DNA of 64,000 nucleotides from Candidatus Acidiferrum sp. (GCA_035602395.1 DATNMH010000068.1:77416-141415); one strand, 5' to 3'; shown: positions 51,248-61,793, counted from the first letter of the stretch. Notes: a model not told the origin generated them from the letters alone. A program made the numbers and translations.

Positions 51248-51313
51248 TCAGGCATTGCGCTTGATCGAGGCCGCCTCCGTCATGAGGCAGAGCGCTTCCT
51301 ATACTTGGCTCGT

Positions 51314-52450
51314 ATGCCGATGACGAAGGGTGGTCTCGAGGATGTCGTTGCAGCGACCTCGACGATCTGCGACATCATCGGTCCGCTCGGCAAGCTGACC
51401 TACCGGGGCATCGACATCCATGACCTGGCCCGTAACTCCTCGTTCGAAGAGACCACCTATCTTCTGTGGTTCGGGTCCTTGCCAACGCGCGCGGCGTTGC
51501 ATGAGTTCAGCGCCCAGGTGGCGTCCCACCGCGCGCTCCCCACCCAGGTCCTGACGATCATGAAGGACTTTCCGCGCAGCGCCACCCCCATGGATGCGCT
51601 GCGGACGGCGCTGTCCGCCCTGGCTTTCTATGATCCGCAGGCGCACGACCCCTCGAGGGAGGCGAACATCGAGAAAGCGATGCGGGTGACGGCGCAAACC
51701 GCGACCATCGTCGCCGCCTACGAACAGATCCGGCGCGGCCGCCAGCCGGTCGAGCCGGAGCCCGATGGAAGCCACGCCGAGAACTTTCTGCGGATGCTGT
51801 ACGGCGCCGAGCCCGACCAGCTGTTCGTCAGCGCGATGGACCTCGCCCTGATCCTCCACGCCGACCACGAACTGAACGCGTCCACGTTTGCGGCCCGCGT
51901 GACGGCGGCCACGTTGGCCGACATGTACTCGGCGATGGTGTCGGCGATAGGCGCCCTCGCCGGTCCCCTGCACGGCGGGGCCAACGAGCAGGTGATGAAG
52001 ATGCTGCAAAAGATCGGCGAGCCGTCGCGGGTCGAGGCCTACGTCACGGAGACGCTCCAGGCCCACCAGAAGATCTCCGGCTTCGGGCACCGCGTCTACA
52101 AGACCGAGGACCCGCGCGCGACCCACCTTCGCCGCATGTCGAAAGAGCTCGGCGAGCACATCGGCAACCTCCGCTGGTACGAGATCTCGCGCAAGCTCGA
52201 GGAGGCCGTGATGCAACAGAAACATCTCTATGCCAACGTCGACTTCTATTCGGCGTCCTGTTACTTCACGATGGGGATCCCGATCGACATGTTCACCCCG
52301 GTCTTTGCGGTCAGCCGGACCGCCGGCTGGGCGGCGCACGTGCTCGAGCAGTACGCGGACAATCGGCTGATCCGGCCCCGCGCCGAGTACCTCGGCGAGA
52401 AGGACGTGGCCTACGTGCCGATCGACCGCCGGGTCAAGGCCGCCAGCTAA
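51314..52450 (+). CDS. Si-citrate synthase / 2-methylcitrate synthase (short dimeric type)
   Basis: LTYRG, HADHELNASTF, GPLHGGAN, GFGHRVYK.EDPRA, NVDFYS, SRTAGW. Confidence 0.93.
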   Translation: MPMTKGGLEDVVAATSTICDIIGPLGKLTYRGIDIHDLARNSSFEETTYLLWFGSLPTRAALHEFSAQVASHRALPTQVLTIMKDFPRSATPMDALRTALSALAFYDPQAHDPSREANIEKAMRVTAQTATIVAAYEQIRRGRQPVEPEPDGSHAENFLRMLYGAEPDQLFVSAMDLALILHADHELNASTFAARVTAATLADMYSAMVSAIGALAGPLHGGANEQVMKMLQKIGEPSRVEAYVTETLQAHQKISGFGHRVYKTEDPRATHLRRMSKELGEHIGNLRWYEISRKLEEAVMQQKHLYANVDFYSASCYFTMGIPIDMFTPVFAVSRTAGWAAHVLEQYADNRLIRPRAEYLGEKDVAYVPIDRRVKAAS

Positions 52451-52559
52451 GGATTCGCCCGATCTCCGTTATATTTATGGCGCTCGTGGAGCCCATACTC
52501 GACAGAGGAGGTCGTTCGAACTCGTCCTACTGCTAAACGCCTCACTTCAGCCGCTGAAT

Positions 52560-53051
52560 GTGATCAGTAAGCGGCGGCTGGTCGTCCTGCTGACCAAGCA
52601 GCGCGTCACGTTTATTGACGACGCGGCCCGGCAGGCGGTCGAGCAAGCAATGGCACGGCGTTGCTTTGGTGCGGATGTCGTCATCGTCCGGCTCCTCTCG
52701 AATATCCAGATCCCTCGTCGCATGCTGCGCGCCAACCGGCGCAACCTCCTTTTGCGGGACGACGGGATGTGCCAGTACTGCGGCAAGGGGATGCCCTCCT
52801 CGCAGCTCTCGGTCGATCACGTGGTCCCCACCTCGCGCGGCGGGGCAGCCAACAGCTGGGAGAACCAGGTGATTGCCTGCCGCCGTTGCAACGGGCGGAA
52901 GGGAAACCGATTGCTAAGCGAGGCCGGCATGCGGCTCATCCGGCCGCCGCGGGCGCTAACCCAGGAATTCGCCCACCTGATCTTCCTGCGCTACCCGCAG
53001 CTCAAGCATGCCTATGACCGGCTGCTCTCCAGCGCCCGCGCCGCCGTCTAA
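52560..53051 (+). CDS. HNH endonuclease (McrA-like); conserved N-terminus extends upstream to about 52521
   Basis: RRNLLLRDDGMCQYCG, SVDHVVP.SRGG, WEN.VIACRRCNGRKG; in-frame upstream VLLLNASLQPLN. Confidence 0.9.
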   Translation: MISKRRLVVLLTKQRVTFIDDAARQAVEQAMARRCFGADVVIVRLLSNIQIPRRMLRANRRNLLLRDDGMCQYCGKGMPSSQLSVDHVVPTSRGGAANSWENQVIACRRCNGRKGNRLLSEAGMRLIRPPRALTQEFAHLIFLRYPQLKHAYDRLLSSARAAV

Positions 53052-53120
53052 GCTCGATCGACGTTCGCGCCGGGTTTTGCTGCGGCTGAAAGGATTGACG
53101 AGCGCGAGCGATTCTCCGAT

Positions 53121-53693
53121 GTGCCCTTTCGCCTGTTGGGCTTCGCGACGGATCCAGACAAGGCCAGCAACCTTTGCGGAGGTACGTTCGCCCGATATGC
53201 CGCGGCCGGCGCCGAGGTCACGCTGGTCTGCGCCGCCGCCCACGACTGGAGTGGGAGGGACCTTGCGACGTTGGCCCGCCAATTGGGCGCCGGCAACCTG
53301 ATCTTGCTGGACTACCAGTCGAGCGAGCTGACGGCTGCCGGCCTCGGAGGCGTCTTCGCGGATGTGATGCGAAGCGTGCGGGCTCACGTGGTGGTCGCGG
53401 AAGGCTCCAACGCCGCGGTCAGGGAGGCGACCACGTCGGCGTTTTCGACCGTTCGCCGGACAGCGGGCGGCTCCGCGGCGCTGCCGGCCAAGCTGTATCT
53501 CCGGCCGTCCGGGGCCCCGGGGAGCGTGGCGGTGACCACCGCGATCGGGGTTGGGCCGCAGGCGACCCCCGAGCTCTTCGTCCGGGTCTTTCCCAATCCG
53601 TGGGTCACCGGGGTATTGGAGCGGGACCTCTTCGCCGGCCTGACGGCCGATCCCGGGACTGCCGCTACGCTCGCCGAGCGGCTCGCCAGCTAG
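53121..53693 (+). CDS. Degenerate PIG-L/MshB-like deacetylase fold (metal ligands lost)
   Basis: LLGFATDPDKA (for AHPDDE), GGTFARYAAAGAEVTLVCA, C-terminal ERDLFAGL; no HxDH. Confidence 0.55.
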   Translation: MPFRLLGFATDPDKASNLCGGTFARYAAAGAEVTLVCAAAHDWSGRDLATLARQLGAGNLILLDYQSSELTAAGLGGVFADVMRSVRAHVVVAEGSNAAVREATTSAFSTVRRTAGGSAALPAKLYLRPSGAPGSVAVTTAIGVGPQATPELFVRVFPNPWVTGVLERDLFAGLTADPGTAATLAERLAS

Positions 53694-53760
53694 CCAGACG
53701 GGAGATTTTCATGATAGTCTTAGTGACACGTTACGTACAAACGTATTCTAGGAGGAAAGT

Positions 53761-54021
53761 ATGAATTTCATCGTCTTCTTGATCATCGGCGGCATCGCGG
53801 GCGCCCTGGCCGGGCGCGTGATGAGTGGCCACGGTTATGGCATCTTGATGGACGTCGTGGTCGGCGTCATCGGCGCTTTTATTGGCGGCTGGCTGCTGTC
53901 CACGATTCTCGGAGTCAGCACCGGCGGCAGCCTGATCATCAGCTTCATCGCGGCATTCCTTGGCGCCGTGGTGCTGTTGTGGGTCATCCGCCTCGTCACC
54001 GGCAACCGCGCTCGCGCCTGA
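53761..54021 (+). CDS. GlsB/YeaQ/YmgE family (transglycosylase-associated) membrane protein
   Basis: IIGGIAGALAG...DVVVGVIGAFIGG...AFLGAVVLLWV; AGGAGG RBS. Confidence 0.92.
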   Translation: MNFIVFLIIGGIAGALAGRVMSGHGYGILMDVVVGVIGAFIGGWLLSTILGVSTGGSLIISFIAAFLGAVVLLWVIRLVTGNRARA

Positions 54022-54039
54022 GCGAAATTCGGCAGCGTG

Positions 54040-54069
54040 AAGCGGGCGCCCGTGGGCGTCCGCTTTTTT
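54040..54069 (+). terminator. Intrinsic terminator
   Basis: AAGCGGGCGCCC-GT-GGGCGTCCGCTT followed by a T-tract. Confidence 0.8.
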
Positions 54070-54087
54070 AGTCGGGCAAGATAACCC

Positions 54088-54768
54088 GTGATGCGCCGGC
54101 TTGGCTTGCTTGCCCTAATCGTCATCCTCGCGTTGCTGGCGGGCGGCGGCTACACCGCCCTGGCGGGTGCCGCGGTCTACCAGGACCTGGATGGCGGCCA
54201 GCAGGCGCTGGTTGCCGCCCAGGCGAGCATGACGGCGGCCGCCGGCACCGGCGACCCGTCGGAGCTCCAGAGCGCGGCCGTCCAGCTCAAGCTCGCCGAG
54301 CGGCATTTCAACGATGCGCATGCGCGATCCGTGAGCGACCCGGCTCTCCACCTGGTAGGCGGCCTTCCACAGGCGGGCCGACAGCTGGCGGCGAGCACCC
54401 ACCTGGCGGCGATCGGCGCCGACCTGAGCCGGTCAGGGGAGGGGGCGGCCGCGGTGGCGATCCAGGTCGCGGATCTGAAGCTGAAATACGCCGGCCGGAC
54501 CCTGACCGCGGGCGATCTCCAGGCCGCACTCCAGGACGCTCAAGGGATCGCCCGGACATACAGCGCCTCGATCCAAGCGATCGGCCAACAGCTGCGGGCT
54601 GCCCAGGGCGAGCGAGCCCAGGTCGACACCACCCAGCTGGTGGGGCCCCTGAAAGACGCCTACGACGCGGTAGACCGGGCCCTGGCCGAGGCCAACACCT
54701 CCTTTCGCCGCTACCAGGACGTCCGGCAGGTGCTGTCGGATTTTCTGGGAGTCCAGCTTCCGCCGTAA
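54088..54768 (+). CDS. Membrane-anchored helical protein (resembles DUF4012 N-terminal region)
   Basis: N-terminal TM, Ala/Gln-rich amphipathic helices. Confidence 0.55.
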   Translation: MMRRLGLLALIVILALLAGGGYTALAGAAVYQDLDGGQQALVAAQASMTAAAGTGDPSELQSAAVQLKLAERHFNDAHARSVSDPALHLVGGLPQAGRQLAASTHLAAIGADLSRSGEGAAAVAIQVADLKLKYAGRTLTAGDLQAALQDAQGIARTYSASIQAIGQQLRAAQGERAQVDTTQLVGPLKDAYDAVDRALAEANTSFRRYQDVRQVLSDFLGVQLPP

Positions 54769-54843
54769 TCTCGTTCAGCACGTGCCACGGGCGAGACCGG
54801 TTTGTAACGTTTACCGTCACAGAGCGGCCTGATAATTTCGGCA

Positions 54844-56097
54844 ATGGCCGCCGTCCGCAATATTTCGCGCAAGGGCCGCCAGCGCTCCCAGGATCCGGCC
54901 GAGAGTCTGATCAATCTCAGCAATGAGCGGCTCACGGGTTTGTTCCGCTGGACGCTGCTGATTTTCGCTGTCATCCTCAACAACCTCAATGCGGCCCCCG
55001 GCTACGACGTGGGCCGGATCAACGGCATCCTCGCGGCCTGGGGCGTCGTCTGTCTGACCACCTTGCTGCTGCTCTTCCTGCACCAACGCCCGGGGAGGGC
55101 GTTCAGCTATGCGACCACCGGCGTCGACATGCTGGTCGCGACCATGATCACCTACGCGTCCGGTGGGTACACGAGCCCATTCGCGGTGCTGTTCTTCCTG
55201 GTCATCACGGTGTCGGCGCTTCGATTCGGCGCGGCAGCGTCGGTGCTCTGCGCCTTGCTGGTGGCAACGCTCTACCTGACGGCCGGCGCCGTCGCGCCTC
55301 TGCAGAATGGGACCTACCTCGCCACCGTCTCGGACGAGCGCATCATCATCCTCCAGCGCCTCTTCCTGTTCGTGGTGGTCGCCGTCGTCGGCTCGGTGAT
55401 GGCGCAAGCCGTGTCGTCGCACCAGGAAATCGTGACGCGGCGGGACGTCGAGGCCAAGTTGATGACCGAAGTCAACATGGCGCTGGCGAATGCCATCGAG
55501 GCCAAGGACAGCTACACGCGCGGCCACTCCGAACGGTTGGCCAAGCTGGCCGGCGCCTGCGCCGAGCGCATGGGGCTCTCCCGTGATGAGGCGGCCGCGG
55601 TTCGCCTGGGCGCCATCCTTCATGACGTCGGCAAGATCGGGATCCCGGATCGGATTCTCCGCCAATCGATGGCGCTTACGGAAGACGAGATGGCCTGGAT
55701 GCGTCGCCACCCGCAGATTGGCGCCGACATCATCGGCCCGGTCGAGGGGCTGCATCACGTGGCGCCGCTGATCCGCCACCACCATGAGAAATTCGACGGC
55801 ACAGGATATCCCAAGGGCCTCAAGGGCGAAGAGATCCCGCTCGGCTCGCGCATCATCGCCGTCGCCGATGCCTTCGAAGCCATGGTGGCCGACCGGATCT
55901 ACCGTCCGTCCCTTGGCCTCAACAAGGCGCTGGAAGAGATCAAGACCGGGCGCGGGAGCCATTTCGACCCACGCGTGGTCGATACTTTCCTGGACCTGAT
56001 CGCGACCGACACCGTGCACCTGCCGCTGCCCACGAAGGACCAGGGCCAGAAACCCGTGCCCACCCGTCCCGACGAGCCAGTGCAGACTGCCGCGTAA
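54844..56097 (+). CDS. Membrane-bound HD-GYP c-di-GMP phosphodiesterase
   Basis: About 5 TM; KDSYTRGHS, LHDVGKIG, HHEKFDGTGYPKGLKG, AVADAF. Confidence 0.92.
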   Translation: MAAVRNISRKGRQRSQDPAESLINLSNERLTGLFRWTLLIFAVILNNLNAAPGYDVGRINGILAAWGVVCLTTLLLLFLHQRPGRAFSYATTGVDMLVATMITYASGGYTSPFAVLFFLVITVSALRFGAAASVLCALLVATLYLTAGAVAPLQNGTYLATVSDERIIILQRLFLFVVVAVVGSVMAQAVSSHQEIVTRRDVEAKLMTEVNMALANAIEAKDSYTRGHSERLAKLAGACAERMGLSRDEAAAVRLGAILHDVGKIGIPDRILRQSMALTEDEMAWMRRHPQIGADIIGPVEGLHHVAPLIRHHHEKFDGTGYPKGLKGEEIPLGSRIIAVADAFEAMVADRIYRPSLGLNKALEEIKTGRGSHFDPRVVDTFLDLIATDTVHLPLPTKDQGQKPVPTRPDEPVQTAA

Positions 56098-56139
56098 CTT
56101 CCCGACCTAACCCTGCGCAGCAGGTAATGTTTGCAGGCA

Positions 56140-57108
56140 ATGGAAGTTGCCCCTGGCATTTTTCGGCTGGAACTCCCGATGCCGTTTGAGCTCAAGCATG
56201 TCAATGTCTTTTTGCTGCGCGACGGTGACGCGTACACGATGATCGACACCGGCCTGCAGACCGATGAATCGCGGCAGGTCCTCAACCAGAAGTTGGCCGA
56301 AATGAAAGTCCGGGTCGAGCGGATCAATCGGATCCTGATCACCCACATCCACCCGGACCACTTCGGTCTGGCGGCCGAGTTGCGTGAACGGTCCGGCGCG
56401 GAGCTCATCATCCATCGGTTGGAGGTCGCCCTGATGGAGCCGCGCTACGCGCGTGCCGAAGACCTCGTCCACGACGTCGCGAAGTGGCTGAGCCGAAACG
56501 GCGTGCCCGAGGCCGAAGCCGAGTTCGTCAAGAGCGCATCGATGGCGGCCCGGGAGTTCGTCTCCGTTGTTGAGCCCGACACGTTGCTCGAAGGCGCCGA
56601 GCGGCTGCCGATCGAGGACAGTGAGATGGAAGTCATCTGGACGCCGGGCCATTCCCCCGGTCATTGCTGTTTCTACTGGCCGGCGCGCGGCGTGCTATTT
56701 TCGGGCGACCATTTACTACCGAAGATCAGCCCGAACATCGGCCTGCACCCGCAATCCGGCGCCGATCCGCTCGATGATTACGTGTCCTCGCTGGAGCGCA
56801 TTCGCCGGCTCGAGGTCGAAACGGTGCTGCCGGCCCATGGCGACCCCTTTTACGACCATCGTGGCCGGATCGCGGAAATCATCGAGCACCACGAGGCGCG
56901 CAAAGCGGCGCTCGTGCGGCTCGCAGCGGATGGGGCGAAGTCTGGCTGGGAACTTGCGGCCGGACTCTTCCAGGGCATCATGCAGCGCAACGTCTTCCAG
57001 CAGCGCCTGGCGTTGCAGGAAACGCTGGCGCACTGTCAATCGCTCGCCGTCGAGGGCCGCATCCACAAGCAGGTGACTCGCGAGCTCGTGACGTGGAGAG
57101 CCGCCTAG
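56140..57108 (+). CDS. Metallo-beta-lactamase fold hydrolase with C-terminal winged helix
   Basis: MIDTG, THIHPDHFG, TPGHSPGH, FSGDH, LPAHG. Confidence 0.88.
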   Translation: MEVAPGIFRLELPMPFELKHVNVFLLRDGDAYTMIDTGLQTDESRQVLNQKLAEMKVRVERINRILITHIHPDHFGLAAELRERSGAELIIHRLEVALMEPRYARAEDLVHDVAKWLSRNGVPEAEAEFVKSASMAAREFVSVVEPDTLLEGAERLPIEDSEMEVIWTPGHSPGHCCFYWPARGVLFSGDHLLPKISPNIGLHPQSGADPLDDYVSSLERIRRLEVETVLPAHGDPFYDHRGRIAEIIEHHEARKAALVRLAADGAKSGWELAAGLFQGIMQRNVFQQRLALQETLAHCQSLAVEGRIHKQVTRELVTWRAA

Positions 57109-57884
57109 GTCCGCTGGCGCTCGACGTCGTCGATGAAATCCAGCAGCAGGCGCACCACCGAGGCGAATTGCTCGGAGTGAACCTGGTGGCCGCCCTGGAG
57201 GATCTCCAGCCGCACATTGGGTAGGCCGCGCTGCAGCTCTTCTGCGCGGGCGACGGGGACCATCAGGTCCTGGCGGCCGTGGAGGATCAGAACCGGTTGG
57301 CGGATTTCGCCGAGCCGGTCGCAGACATTGTGTTGTTTGACGGCCTGGTCCTGGCGGACGATGGCATGAAGTGGCATTTTGCCGAAATGGCGCGCATCTT
57401 CTTCGACCCACTCGGGATGTTCGGCAATAAAGTCGGCGTCGTAGAGATTGGCAAAGCGGCGCAGCGGTCCTTCGACCGTCGGCGCGTTACCGGCGCCGGC
57501 CGTGGGTGGGTGCTCGCCGCCGCAGTGGGTCGCGCCCAGGATCAAGCTGCGAACCGCGTCAGGGTGCAGGAGGGCGAGCTGCTGCAAAATCATCCCGCCC
57601 ATCGAGAGGCCGAACCAGTGCGCCGACGTCTCGCCGGCATTGCGAAGCACCGCGAGCGCGTCGTCCGCCATGACCTGGGTCGTGTACGGCGTGTCCGGTT
57701 TGTCGGACGCGCCCGTCCCGCGGTTGTCGAGCGCGATTACCTTGAGGCGCTTGGCGAGCACCGGGATATACCGCCACCAGGCGCCGTCAATGTCCGAGGT
57801 CTTGCCGCCGACCAGGACAAGCGGCGGCTCGGTTCCCTCCACGATGTAGTGCAGGCGGGTCGCGTCGGCGGCGGTTGCGATCAT
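57105..57884 (-). CDS. Alpha/beta hydrolase
   Basis: DNRGTG, GLSMGG, LHGRQDLMVP, GGHQV. Confidence 0.88.
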   Translation of the reverse strand: MIATAADATRLHYIVEGTEPPLVLVGGKTSDIDGAWWRYIPVLAKRLKVIALDNRGTGASDKPDTPYTTQVMADDALAVLRNAGETSAHWFGLSMGGMILQQLALLHPDAVRSLILGATHCGGEHPPTAGAGNAPTVEGPLRRFANLYDADFIAEHPEWVEEDARHFGKMPLHAIVRQDQAVKQHNVCDRLGEIRQPVLILHGRQDLMVPVARAEELQRGLPNVRLEILQGGHQVHSEQFASVVRLLLDFIDDVERQRT

Positions 57885-57896
57885 TCGCGCATTAGC

Positions 57897-58223
57897 ATGA
57901 AGCTCGAGATGGCAGGGGCCTCGTCACCCGGCAATAGTGCGGTACCCGAACCCGCCTGGCGGGCCCTGCAAAGTCTCGATCCGCAGGTGGAAGACCAGAT
58001 CGTCACCCTGGCCACCTGCCTGGCACTCGCCGAGCAGCGCTTCCAGATGTTGTTCGAAGGCGTGTTGCCCCGCTTCGCCGAAGCGCCGGATGACCTGACG
58101 GGCGAAGCCGACGCCCTCGCCGATGCACACCATGCGCTGACCTTGCTGCAGGAGAGCCTGCACGCGACCTCACGGCGGATGCTCGACGTGCTGGACCGGG
58201 TCAGCCGCGAACTGGGCGAGTAG
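57897..58223 (+). CDS. Hypothetical helical protein
   Basis: 108 aa amphipathic-helix ORF filling the gap between annotated genes. Confidence 0.6.
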   Translation: MKLEMAGASSPGNSAVPEPAWRALQSLDPQVEDQIVTLATCLALAEQRFQMLFEGVLPRFAEAPDDLTGEADALADAHHALTLLQESLHATSRRMLDVLDRVSRELGE

Positions 58224-58226
58224 GCG

Positions 58227-58571
58227 CTACAACCCCTGGCGGTCGAGGCGCTCCCACGGTGGGTGCTCGCTGCCCAGGTCGCGCTTGATGTCGGTGGCGC
58301 GGTCGACGTTGTCAAGACTCTCGTCATCGGATCGGGGCGGTTGCACCTGCCAGGGAGCCGGGTCATACCGCGAATGGTGGACAGCCGGGCGAAACCCCCA
58401 GGCGCGACTCGGCATCACACCCGCGGTCTGCCGCAGGACGAGCGGCTCCACCGTGGGCGCGTCGTACTCGAGCGCCCCCTCGCCCGGGCGCAACGCCATG
58501 ATCAGTCCGGCGCCGATCATCGCCACGGTCCAACCGCCCAGGATGATTACCGCCCAATCGACAAGGGTCAT
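58227..58571 (-). CDS. Hypothetical membrane-anchored protein
   Basis: [29 protein letters not shown]; TACAAT upstream. Confidence 0.55.
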
Positions 58572-58640
58572 CGATTCGCCATTGTAGAGCGGCGGCGCGA
58601 AGCGCCTAAACTGAGAACAGTTACCGCGAAGGAGGAGCAG

Positions 58641-59717
58641 ATGGCTACCGCAACCGCGACATCGCTGAGCAAGCTGGAATCGATCCTCGGCAACGACGCC
58701 GCCAGCCTGCTGCAGCACGAGTGCAAGACGATCCCGAAGTCGCAGCTGCATCTGCCGGGCCCCGACTTCGTGACCCGGATCTTTTCAACCAGCGATCGCC
58801 CGACGCGGGTTCTGCGAAGCCTCGAATCGCTGTACGACCACGGCCGGCTGGCGGGCACGGGCTACCTGTCGATCCTGCCGGTCGACCAGGGCATCGAGCA
58901 CTCCGCGGGCGCATCATTCGCCGCCAACCCCGCGTACTTCGACGGCGAGAAGATCGTGGAGCTGGCCATCGAGGGCGGCTGCAATGCTGTGGCGTCGACC
59001 TTCGGGGTCCTCGGCTCGGTCGCGCGCAAGTACGCGCACAAGATCCCCTTCATCTGCAAGCTCAACCACAACGAGCTGCTGACGTATCCCAACCATTACG
59101 ACCAGATTCGCTTCGGCACCGTCAAAGAGGCGTGGGAGCTTGGGGCGGTGGCGCTCGGGGCGACGATCTACTTCGGCTCGCCCGAGGCAGACCGCCAGAT
59201 CCAGGAGATTTCGGCGGCCTTCCACGAGGCGCACCAACTGGGCATGGCGACAGTGCTCTGGTGCTACCTGCGCAATCCGGCCTTCATCAAAGATGGCGTC
59301 AACTACGAAGTGTCTGCCGACCTCACTGGCCAGGCGAATCACCTCGGGGTCTCGATCGAGGCTGACATCATCAAGCAGAAGCTGCCCGAGACCAATCACG
59401 GATTCGAGGCCGTGAAGTTCGGCAAGACGACCAAGGCGGTTTACGACAAGCTGACCAGCGACCATCCGATCGACCTGACGCGATACCAGGTGGCCAACTG
59501 CTACATGGGACGGAGTGGGCTGATCAATTCGGGAGGCGCCTCGTCCGGCGAGGCTGATCTCAAGGAAGCCGTCAAGACCGCTGTGATCAACAAGCGAGCG
59601 GGCGGCACCGGCCTGATCACCGGGCGCAAGGCCTTCATGCGACCGATGAGCGAGGGCATCCAGCTGCTGAACGCGGTGCAGGACGTCTACTTGATGGACG
59701 AGGTGACCGTCGCCTAA
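58641..59717 (+). CDS. fbaB: Class I fructose-bisphosphate aldolase (FbaB/DhnA type)
   Basis: [44 protein letters not shown]; GGAGG RBS. Confidence 0.93.
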
Positions 59718-59749
59718 CCGCCGGCCGACGGCGGCGATACAATCCGCCC

Positions 59750-59941
59750 ATGGCAACCCCCCGCCTGCGCGCGACTGAATCGGGCCAGGTCTACAACATC
59801 GATCTGCCCGAATTGAAGGTCACGCGCGACGATGTCGATGGGATCTACGTGCTGCACGGCCGCGGCTATTTCCAGACGTTCACCAGCCGCGAGGAAGCCT
59901 TCGAACGTAAGAAGGAGATCGACTACAGCACGTTCCGGTAG
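59750..59941 (+). CDS. Small hypothetical protein (63 aa)
   Basis: TACAAT 6 nt before the ATG; globular beta-rich sequence. Confidence 0.7.
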   Translation: MATPRLRATESGQVYNIDLPELKVTRDDVDGIYVLHGRGYFQTFTSREEAFERKKEIDYSTFR

Positions 59942-59964
59942 GCATTCGCCAAAGGAAGGGCAAC

Positions 59965-60117
59965 GTGGGGAAAGAGAGCAGTGAGGCCGGCGGTAAGCCG
60001 TGCGTTTGCCACATCAAGAAGTCAGGGTGGCCATGGAAAGCAACGGGGAAAGTAGAGGCCGGTCAGCGTGAGGAGAAGTGCCGCATCTGCGGCGCCACGC
60101 ACATGGTGACGGCCTAA
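59965..60117 (+). CDS. Unannotated 50-aa Cys/His small protein (below ORF-track cutoff)
   Basis: AAGGA RBS then GTG; MGKESSEAGGKPCVCHIKKSGWPWKATGKVEAGQREEKCRICGATHMVTA. Confidence 0.6.
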   Translation: MGKESSEAGGKPCVCHIKKSGWPWKATGKVEAGQREEKCRICGATHMVTA

Positions 60118-60350
60118 GGGTCGCCCATCCAGTCGGCGGCGTGGGGGAGGGGACGGGCGCCTCGGCTCGGCCGCAGATGCAGGACGCGTTGGACGTCGCC
60201 GTGCCGGTATAAGCGAGCTCGCTTGATGCCTTGCCGATAGCTCTTGAGCACGCCGCGGCTGACGTAGGCGTACAGTGTCGCCGGCTTCACGCCGAGCAGC
60301 TCGCAGGCCTCGGCGGCACTCAGGTAGGGCTCCCCGTGGATCTCGATCAT
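60114..60350 (-). CDS. Stand-alone MerR/excisionase-type HTH protein of the kind usually fused to citrate-synthase-family proteins
   Basis: YLSAAEACELLGVKPATLYAYVSRGVLKSY. Confidence 0.85.
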   Translation of the reverse strand: MIEIHGEPYLSAAEACELLGVKPATLYAYVSRGVLKSYRQGIKRARLYRHGDVQRVLHLRPSRGARPLPHAADWMGDP

Positions 60351-60378
60351 GATCGCCTTAAGCGTACGTGAGTCGATC

Positions 60379-60423
60379 GTTGCAGTCAACATGTTGCAAT
60401 GCAAATCAACATATGCATAGAAT
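60379..60423 (+). promoter_or_regulatory. Divergent promoter with overlapping palindromes
   Basis: TTGCAA(60394-99)-N18-TAGAAT(60418-23), 6 nt before ATG 60430; palindromes CAACATGTTG (60387-96), TTGCA-A-TGCAA, TATGCATA. Confidence 0.6.
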
Positions 60424-60429
60424 GGATTG

Positions 60430-61746
60430 ATGCTGGACCGATCCGAACCGAACCTGCTGCGCGGCGAGTTTCCGTACAGTCGGATCCCACCGATCCGCTT
60501 CGAGTCGGAAGCGGTCCCCCAGGCGCCGCCCCGGGACATCTGGATCACGGATACGACCTTCCGAGACGGCCAGCAGGCGCGGGCCCCGTACAGCGTCGAG
60601 CAGATCGTTCACCTCTACGACCTGCTGAACGAGCTGGGCGGGCCGGTGATCAGGCAGACCGAGTTCTTCGCGTACACACCGGTCGATCGCGAGGCGATCG
60701 CCGCCTGCCAGCAACGACCCGGACCGGAGGTCACGACCTGGATGCGCGCCTCACTCGACGATCTCAAGGCGGTCGCGTCGACGGGCGTCAAGGAGACCGG
60801 CATCCTGGTCTCAGCCTCCGACTACCACATCTACCTGAAGATGAACCGCACGCGGCGCCAGGCCGCGGACGATTACGGACGGGTAGTCCGCGCCGCGATC
60901 GACGCGGGCCTGCGGCCGCGCTGCCACCTGGAGGACCTGACCCGCGCCGATCTGGACGGCTTCGTCGCGCCGCTGGTCGAATTCCTGCAGGAAATCGGGC
61001 GCGCGGCGAAAATCCCGGTGAAATTCCGGCTGTGCGACACGATGGGCTTCGGGCTGCCCTGGCCGGAGGCGGCGCTTCCTCGCGGGGTGCCTCGACTCGT
61101 TCAGTACTTCACGCGCACGCTCGGCGTTGCACCAGAGCTCCTCGAATGGCACGGTCACAACGACTTCCACCGTGGCGAGGTCAACACCGTCGCCGCCTGG
61201 CTCTACGGTTGCGCCGCGGCGAACGGCTCCTTCTTTGGCTTCGGCGAGCGAACCGGCAATCCGCCGCTGGAAGCGCTGATCATCGACTACGTGGGACTGA
61301 GAGGGGAGACGCCGGGTCTCGATACCACGGCGATCACGCGGGCGGCCGCCTATTTCCGGGATCAGCTGGGGACTCCGCTGCCGGCGAATTATCCGTTCGC
61401 CGGCGCCGGCTTCAATGTCACGAGCGCCGGAATCCACGCCGACGGACTGCTCAAGAACGAGGAGATCTACAACATTTTCGACACGGGCCGGATTCTCGAC
61501 CGGCCGCTTGGGATCACGGTCAACGATCGCTCGGGGCTGGCCGGGGTCGCCTACTGGATCAACACGACGCTGGGCGTGAAAAGCGCCACCCAGGTGCGAA
61601 AGGACGACCCGCGAGTAGCGGCCATCCACCGCGAGGTTGAGCGGCAATATGCGGCCGGTCGGACCACCGGGTTCTCGCCCGACGAGATGCTGGCCCTGGC
61701 CAAGTTGCAGTTCGGCAACGCCCTGGAAACGAGCGCGCGCAGCTAA
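60430..61746 (+). CDS. Re-citrate synthase-like DRE-TIM metallolyase (LeuA/HCS superfamily)
   Basis: IWITDTTFRDGQQAR.PY, IRQTEFF, CHLED.TRAD, RLCDTMG, EWHGHND, GERTGN; no LeuA allosteric domain. Confidence 0.85.
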   Translation: MLDRSEPNLLRGEFPYSRIPPIRFESEAVPQAPPRDIWITDTTFRDGQQARAPYSVEQIVHLYDLLNELGGPVIRQTEFFAYTPVDREAIAACQQRPGPEVTTWMRASLDDLKAVASTGVKETGILVSASDYHIYLKMNRTRRQAADDYGRVVRAAIDAGLRPRCHLEDLTRADLDGFVAPLVEFLQEIGRAAKIPVKFRLCDTMGFGLPWPEAALPRGVPRLVQYFTRTLGVAPELLEWHGHNDFHRGEVNTVAAWLYGCAAANGSFFGFGERTGNPPLEALIIDYVGLRGETPGLDTTAITRAAAYFRDQLGTPLPANYPFAGAGFNVTSAGIHADGLLKNEEIYNIFDTGRILDRPLGITVNDRSGLAGVAYWINTTLGVKSATQVRKDDPRVAAIHREVERQYAAGRTTGFSPDEMLALAKLQFGNALETSARS

Positions 61747-61793
61747 CAAGTTGACCCGATCGCCGGAGTTGATTGCTGTGAGGCATTCCGGCG

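Follow-up and report, generated by a model that had tools for sequence, protein, structure and literature searches.

Within a 64-kb window, the whole stretch of DNA analyzed here (64,000 nucleotides of the assembly G000), we found genes for two citrate synthases of unrelated kinds. A gene at 51314 encodes a Si-citrate synthase, and a gene at 60430 encodes a DRE-TIM enzyme which, judged by its sequence, is an orthologue of the Re-citrate synthase (EC 2.3.3.3, K05942) of the Clostridium kluyveri/Syntrophus type. Divergent from the latter lies a gene for a 78-aa helix-turn-helix (HTH) protein, and the HTH/enzyme pair is a conserved module. It is fairly probable, in our view, that the Re-type enzyme is an accessory citrate synthase repressed by the HTH protein, which would also regulate its own gene, beside a housekeeping Si enzyme. 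Gene identities, phylogeny, the conserved pairing, a shared DNA motif and purifying selection constitute the observations. Open reading frame (ORF) and profile scans placed all three genes where the first-pass annotation had put them, and its descriptions of them were correct. The occurrence of Si and Re enzymes in one organism is already known; what looks new is a stand-alone, sensor-less regulator paired with a regulated Re-type enzyme in a bacterium encoding a heme-copper oxidase.

Identity of the two citrate synthases

The 60430 enzyme matched PF00682 with 114.7 bits and fell below every curated NCBIfam cut-off for isopropylmalate synthases (IPMS), homocitrate synthases (HCS) and citramalate synthases, its best scores being 137.6 for nifV (cut-off 462.9), 100.8 for LEU1_arch (484.8), 93.3 for LysS (413.6) and 42.3 for citramalate synthase (450). 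A PDB search returned no Re-citrate synthase, with IPMS, CimA and HCS entries as the best matches (E about 1e-20). The metal- and substrate-binding residues of DRE-TIM enzymes, that is the Asp and Arg of D-T-T-x-R-D-G, His-x-His, the Glu of ..H.ED.. and the His of ..G-I-H-A-D-G, are present and invariant in the family alignment (A1). Where LeuA and HCS carry DTTLRDGEQ, the window enzyme carries TDTTFRDGQQ, accompanied by LEWHGHNDF; comparison with a published table (Table S1 of PMC12016533) revealed that both motifs are common to CKL_0973, SYN_02536, CAC0970 and CLO1313_RS03665. With CKL_0973 of C. kluyveri and SYN_02536 of Syntrophus aciditrophicus, members of the same DRE-TIM family and sub-clade, it also shares IRQTEFF, PRCH.ED.TRAD, GERTGN and FNVT.AG.HADG.

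Known Re-enzymes form two clades that are ~28% identical to each other, one comprising the enzymes of C. kluyveri, Syntrophus, C. acetobutylicum and C. thermocellum, the other those of Dehalococcoides, C. difficile, Thermoanaerobacter and Heliomicrobium (PMC12016533). Identity between the window enzyme and CLO1313_RS03665 of C. thermocellum (A. thermocellus) was 53-54%; this gene was located by way of an Acetivibrio locus and its genus, and three exact peptides fixed its identity. Across the family the window enzyme showed 50-56% identity, comparable to assayed members among themselves (49-65% inside the C. kluyveri-type clade, with the purified C. kluyveri enzyme 61% and the purified Syntrophus enzyme 60% identical to that of A. 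thermocellus; PMC12016533). In a careful maximum-likelihood (ML) tree of 48 rows, the enzyme fell inside the family clade with support of 100/99 and shared a 12-row clade with CLO1313_RS03665 (98/87). The LeuA clade (99/99) stood apart, as did the Dehalococcoides-type clade (100/100), whose members are about 27-29% identical to the window enzyme. A quick tree of 63 rows was concordant. One row of the careful tree (L163), a mis-extracted ORF, was disregarded, and no claim is based on the unpublished genome G038, which contributed a single LeuA-clade row (L022) to the quick tree. The first-pass annotation had read the enzyme as Re-citrate-synthase-like; motifs and family clade agree with that reading, and the phylogeny that it had proposed revealed no clustering with IPMS or HCS. 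From its sequence, the enzyme would be expected to act with Re-stereospecificity.

Close homologues are named "citrate (Re)-synthase" by JGI/NCBI, but also IPMS, and more distant family members (clusters of P0122, P0125 and P0129) bear the NCBI name "histone-lysine N-methyltransferase", which looks like a propagated misannotation. Elsewhere, G000 encodes LeuA (NF002086, 610 bits, cut-off 532), a lysine-type HCS (TIGR02146, 449 bits, cut-off 413), HMG-CoA lyase and pyruvate carboxylase B. Its HCS and a third LeuA/HCS-like paralogue (L004, a 489-aa ORF at G000:C23:3008-3817) lie outside the family clade of the careful tree; the latter scored below all curated cut-offs, has an aconitase-family gene 4 kb away and is possibly a citramalate synthase. 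Additional regulatory domains occur in some family members: in P0121 a response-regulator receiver at the N-terminus, and in P0122 (615 aa) a C-terminal Cache/PDC-like sensor, which the window enzyme lacks and the similarly long Syntrophus protein (PMC12016533) may have. Because members elsewhere are fused to receiver or Cache-like domains, tight control is suggested to be common in this enzyme family.

The product of the 51314 gene is a classical citrate synthase, as the first-pass annotation had it. It is a full-length match to PF00285 (462.9 bits over model positions 1-357) and to TIGR01800 (509 bits, cut-off 421) with intact catalytic His/His/Asp motifs, namely DHE, GFGHRVYKTEDPR (GFGH..DPR) and NVD. 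This gene is the sole PF00285 gene found in G000, and it probably encodes the housekeeping, constitutive citrate synthase of the Krebs cycle. A methylcitrate role is without support because no PrpD was found in G000, with the caveat that the assembly is 86% complete. A TATACT box 8 nt 5' of the ATG suggests a leaderless mRNA. Sharing of the HTH operator by the Si gene was considered and rejected, the motif being absent near 51250-51313. A same-genus genome carries a second citrate synthase of another type.

Re-citrate synthase is usually regarded as an oxygen-sensitive enzyme of strict anaerobes. The premise of the first-pass annotation, that Re-enzymes belong to anaerobes lacking the Si enzyme, did not hold up: C. 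thermocellum has both, 13C evidence published in 2018 indicates that it uses both in vivo (PMC6115520), and Li et al. 2007 has been cited for the co-occurrence (PMC11964587). Why some bacteria retain two stereochemically opposite citrate synthases is described as an open question (PMC6115520). A strong match to the 60430 enzyme occurred in 9 of 151 Chloroflexota genomes (G000 included), and a PF00285 gene was present in all eight others, in A. thermocellus and in G000. All five Dehalococcoidia genomes checked lacked a PF00285 gene, leaving the Dehalococcoides-type Re-enzyme as their sole citrate synthase. The window host differs from C. kluyveri and Syntrophus in having a heme-copper oxidase and a Si enzyme. 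It resembles C. thermocellum in having both stereotypes in one genome, and differs from it in that C. thermocellum is a strict anaerobe whose Re gene adjoins an aconitase gene instead of an HTH gene and lies 180 kb from the Si gene. Spacing of ~9-10 kb between the Si and Re genes recurs only inside the window's own family (f1); we therefore reject a functional meaning of this proximity, to which the earlier annotation had drawn attention, as it reflects synteny within that family.

The HTH protein and its candidate operators

The HTH protein matched PF12728 (HTH_17) with 40.3 bits, against a gathering score of 27. An AlphaFold model (mean pLDDT 79.5) predicts a helix-turn-helix with a beta-hairpin wing, for which the best fold matches were BldC (6ama; TM score 0.80 on target, 33% identity) and the Xis protein of mycobacteriophage Pukovnik, followed by MerR N-terminal domains. 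Like BldC of Streptomyces (6ama, 6amk) and phage Xis (4j2n), it would be a small MerR-like winged helix without effector domain or coiled coil; TM scores for these two best fold matches ranged from 0.73 to 0.81 on target, but sequence similarity was marginal (E about 0.2). BldC regulates development globally and occupies direct repeats in head-to-tail fashion. The candidate window site, by comparison, has no second copy in the genome, and of the two sites one forms an inverted repeat.

More than 100 of the best 120 longer homologues are fusions of PF12728 to PF00285, about 400-450 aa long, with the catalytic His/His/Asp of citrate synthase retained in their bodies. This bears out the earlier suggestion that the HTH is of a type normally fused to citrate-synthase-like proteins. 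Solo proteins and fusion heads have its invariant core, LGVKPATLYAYVSRG, in common. No citrate-synthase-like body follows it on the minus strand; the window protein ends at the linker, where the ORF stops at 78 aa. By sequence, it belongs to the same subfamily as the fusions but is not itself a fusion. The window protein has a conserved tail (..LPHAADWMGDP), and ratios of nonsynonymous to synonymous substitution rates (dN/dS) of 0.09-0.20 across four genomes, tail included, indicate purifying selection. A full-text literature search found no paper on regulators of the HTH_17+citrate-synthase-like fusion kind. Caulobacter CitC, a possible member of the fusion family, is reported not to complement an Escherichia coli gltA mutant, in a paper that does not mention an HTH (PMC7083601). 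In its nearest longer relatives, the HTH is joined to a luciferase-like monooxygenase domain (PF00296); one such gene was examined, on the metagenomic contig of P0284, and is divergent from a 259-aa citrate-synthase-family gene.

The solo HTH gene is adjacent to and divergent from the enzyme gene in three same-family relatives (G017, G128 and G137). Beyond this family, G127 has a solo 77-aa HTH divergent from a gene for a 48% identical enzyme, and in the metagenomic P0133 a solo 80-aa HTH adjoins the enzyme gene divergently. In family f8 (G120 and G066), a full HTH+citrate-synthase fusion adjoins an enzyme of a diverged sub-clade. Members of this Chloroflexota sub-clade (L014 on G120:C202, L015 on G066:C65, and L013) have TTETTHRDGQQ instead of TDTTFRDGQQ and LEFHPHND instead of LEWHGHND, and their specificity may differ. 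No such HTH was present beside 91 clostridial loci or two other anaerobe-type family members, nor in the 1.5-kb flanks of 17 Dehalococcoidia loci; the dedicated divergent HTH sets the window gene apart from the clostridial loci.

Fusions of the actinomycete type revealed the same arrangement with the other kind of Re-enzyme. Of the four looked up, three adjoin an HMGL-like gene in back-to-back orientation, and for the fourth the distance is one gene. These HMGL-like genes are orthologues of the Dehalococcoides Re-citrate synthase (52-53% identity; exact CAI83711 peptides verified the Dehalococcoides loci). Among 201 evenly sampled Actinomycetes genomes, 6 encoded the Dehalococcoides-type enzyme; the fusion gene was adjacent and divergent in all five where adjacency could be judged, the two genes lying on different contigs in the sixth. 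The fusions match the window HTH in an identical recognition-helix region, a similar AT-rich operator and the same divergent placement by a gene for a citrate-forming enzyme. The enzyme of Dehalococcoides mccartyi CBDB1 (CAI83711), of the H. modesticaldum/C. difficile type, catalyzes the reaction proposed for the window enzyme, and its actinomycete orthologues go with the same regulator family and operator as in the window; none of three genomes of the window's own family contained this type.

The control region between the two window genes is conserved as a block in G017, G128 and G137. The boxes of the enzyme promoter are near consensus (9/12), and the ATG follows the -10 by 6 nt, so that the enzyme mRNA is probably leaderless, going by sequence. 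Candidate operator site 1 overlaps the -35 TTGCAA and is conserved in the family, in line with the palindrome that the first-pass annotation had seen there; G017 and G137 retain it as TCAAY-N2-RTTG. A related palindrome, TCAATATTGA, is equally placed beside the fusion regulators in Actinomycetes, G120 and G066. The window spacer holds two TCAAC-containing sites 20 nt apart. AATCAAYAT occurs once in the window, at site 2, and the site 2 17-mer has no other occurrence in the 2.13-Mb assembly at ≤2 mismatches. More broadly, AATCAAY matched 13 times in 903 bp of spacers versus 2 times in 47,856 bp of flanks, across loci that are partly related and represent about five independent lineages, so that a nominal P value exaggerates the enrichment. 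The spacers of G127, G120, G066 and of the actinomycete loci are filled with the words AATCAAT and TCAATATTGA, an AT-rich motif in DNA of 62-72% GC, and at L144, where another gene parts the two genes, a motif copy lies upstream of each. A repeat search with 6-nt seeds returned nothing in the spacer; we picked up the short palindromes by eye, from alignments and with pattern searches. These motifs point to sites 1 and 2 as the likely binding sites of the HTH protein. A third RTCAAYNTRT match, GTCAACTTGT (61746-61755, minus strand), coincides with the enzyme gene's stop codon, ahead of the DUF3352 gene, and may be due to chance.

Proposed regulation and its rivals

In the mechanism that we propose, the Si-citrate synthase would serve as the constitutive Krebs-cycle enzyme, and the unrelated Re-type enzyme would be an accessory isoenzyme for the same reaction, its gene transcribed from a sigma-70-type, probably leaderless promoter. 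The BldC/Xis-like HTH protein would bind TCAAY-N2-RTTG and AATCAAYAT over the -35 and the spacer and shut both back-to-back promoters, resulting in repression of the enzyme gene and autoregulation. It may be the stand-alone form of the citrate-synthase-bodied regulators, either derived from or ancestral to them. Both the direction of this control and its dependence on some physiological signal are inferred, and the sensor body of the fusions is missing in the window lineage. Since the enzyme gene has its own regulator, condition-dependent switching between the citrate synthases is plausible.

Several observations weigh against this proposal. The C. kluyveri enzyme is reported to be oxygen-sensitive (PMC6115520), and G000 has a heme-copper oxidase. 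No assayed enzyme comes from the Dormibacterial branch, and the C. kluyveri and Syntrophus enzymes are tied to our tree solely via published identities to the A. thermocellus protein. G128 has one mismatch in site 1, and the half-sites are separated by 2 bp in the Dormibacterial sites versus none in the actinomycete ones. The solo HTH is without a ligand-binding domain, making a simple metabolite switch hard to see. Finally, ~12 of 19 fusion-bearing actinomycete genomes are without a gene for the Dehalococcoides-type enzyme, and in ten such genomes with fetched flanks no HMGL gene lies within 5 kb of the fusion. Because of such fusions without an enzyme gene, the regulator family is not restricted to Re-enzymes, and we rejected the idea that all HTH+citrate-synthase fusions guard them. 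The enzyme-less fusions in these large actinomycete genomes (L165-L174) are 46-50% identical to P0357; at L168, L171 and L174 a second citrate-synthase-like fragment lies next door.

The enzyme might belong to the Re family by descent and yet be a specialized synthase with another substrate pair, for example with a different 2-oxo acid or with propionyl-CoA. It is a broad family in which some sub-clades have altered active-site motifs (TTETTHRDGQQ/LEFHPHND in f8, CVDSTL in P0190/P0195), few members have been assayed, and the genome already has a Si enzyme. We nevertheless consider this unlikely. The window enzyme retains the exact motifs of assayed enzymes and shares a 12-row clade with the 13C-supported A. 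thermocellus enzyme, and G000, in which PrpD was not found, already encodes LeuA, HCS and a further LeuA/CimA-like paralogue. Moreover, the non-orthologous Dehalococcoides-type enzyme comes with the same regulator family and operator, and Re-citrate synthesis is the only property that the two enzyme clades are known to have in common. Equally doubtful is an opposite sign of regulation, with the HTH protein acting as an activator of the MerR kind that binds an over-long spacer and realigns the -35 and -10 boxes. Its predicted MerR/BldC-like fold, the position of site 2 inside a spacer of 18 nt (longer than the optimal 17 nt) and an ATGCA-N10-TGCAT dyad spanning that spacer would suit such a role. 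Classical MerR proteins, however, act on 19-20-nt spacers through a coiled-coil dimer and an effector domain, both absent here; the boxes are already near consensus, and site 1 over both -35 boxes is the usual geometry of a repressor.

That the small HTH gene plays no part in enzyme control, being a decaying fusion remnant or the excisionase of a mobile element, appears most improbable. The protein does resemble a fusion head cut at the linker, and HTH_17 includes excisionases (TIGR01764, 28.7 bits, just below the cut-off of 28.8). Against this stand the low dN/dS and strongly conserved tail, the repeated pairing of a solo HTH and the enzyme in three distinct lineages (f1, G127 and P0133) and the conserved candidate operator, and neither integrase nor attachment repeats occur nearby in a region of even GC. 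A variant of the proposed repression, which we regard as quite unlikely, is a split regulator, in which the HTH would have been deprived of its citrate-synthase-like body and its conserved tail would recruit free Si-citrate synthase or another protein of citrate-synthase fold as a sensor in trans. Were it true, transcription of the Re back-up would depend directly on the flux state of the ordinary enzyme.

Genomic setting and significance

Table 1. Genes and candidate control elements of the 51.3-63.5 kb stretch, in map order (window coordinates)
Feature	Coordinates	Strand	Description
Si-citrate synthase gene	51314..52450	+	type II (short), PF00285; TTG start 51305, ATG 51314
HNH protein gene			
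HD protein gene			HD-GYP-type
MBL-fold hydrolase gene			
Alpha/beta hydrolase gene		-	
Fructose-bisphosphate aldolase gene			class I
Conserved ORF	59750-59941	+	63 aa
Cys-rich ORF	59965-60117	+	50 aa; C-x-C-H ... C-x-x-C
HTH_17 protein gene	60350 (ATG) to 60114 (stop)	-	78 aa
Divergent control region	60351..60429		79 bp, between HTH and DRE-TIM genes
Possible HTH promoter	TTGACT 60389-60384, TACGCT 60366-60361	-	read by eye, weak
Candidate operator site 1	60386..60396		inverted repeat TCAAC-AT-GTTG over both -35 boxes
Enzyme promoter	-35 TTGCAA 60394-60399, -10 TAGAAT 60418-60423	+	18-nt spacer; promoter scan
Candidate operator site 2	60404..60418		AATCAACATATGCAT in promoter spacer, 20 nt after site 1
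HMGL-like DRE-TIM enzyme gene	60430..61746	+	438 aa; PF00682 (HMGL-like domain only)
DUF3352 protein gene	3' of the enzyme gene		

The assembly that contains the window comprises 2.13 Mb and is 85.8% complete. Close homologues of the window proteins come from Dormibacteraeota/Chloroflexota metagenome-assembled genomes, GC is even at 62-68% over the region, and G000 encodes heme-copper oxidase subunit I (COX1, 539 bits). The host, an uncultured soil bacterium (Dormibacteria), apparently respires oxygen. Two small ORFs lie between the aldolase and HTH genes (Table 1). The 63-aa ORF has no Pfam match and is 85-89% identical in G017, G128 and G137; it is likely a real small protein. The Cys-rich ORF is convergent with the HTH gene, overlaps its stop and is kept only in the same-genus G017 (90% over 40 aa).

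A dedicated local regulator divergent from a citrate synthase gene has a counterpart in Bacillus subtilis, where CitR, a LysR-type repressor, is encoded divergently from the minor citrate synthase gene citA. The likeness lies in the arrangement; CitR differs in belonging to the LysR family and in regulating a Si-type paralogue.

Together, these findings describe a Re-type enzyme in a lineage that has a terminal oxidase and a Si enzyme, equipped with a small regulator of its own and a candidate operator that is unique in the genome. For the citrate-forming step of the Krebs cycle, the host seems to possess a back-up under separate control, and identifying what releases the HTH protein would tell when the Re enzyme is wanted. 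The presence of fusion regulators beside both unrelated Re-enzyme clades, in Actinomycetes and in Chloroflexota, provides independent evidence from gene context for citrate formation by these poorly annotated DRE-TIM genes. It also hints at a family of enzyme-derived transcription factors, apparently unstudied so far, for entry into the Krebs cycle; in a broader form of the split-regulator reading, held to be just as unlikely, HTH_17 proteins with citrate-synthase bodies would constitute an undescribed family of enzyme-derived regulators controlling alternative citrate synthases of three unrelated kinds.

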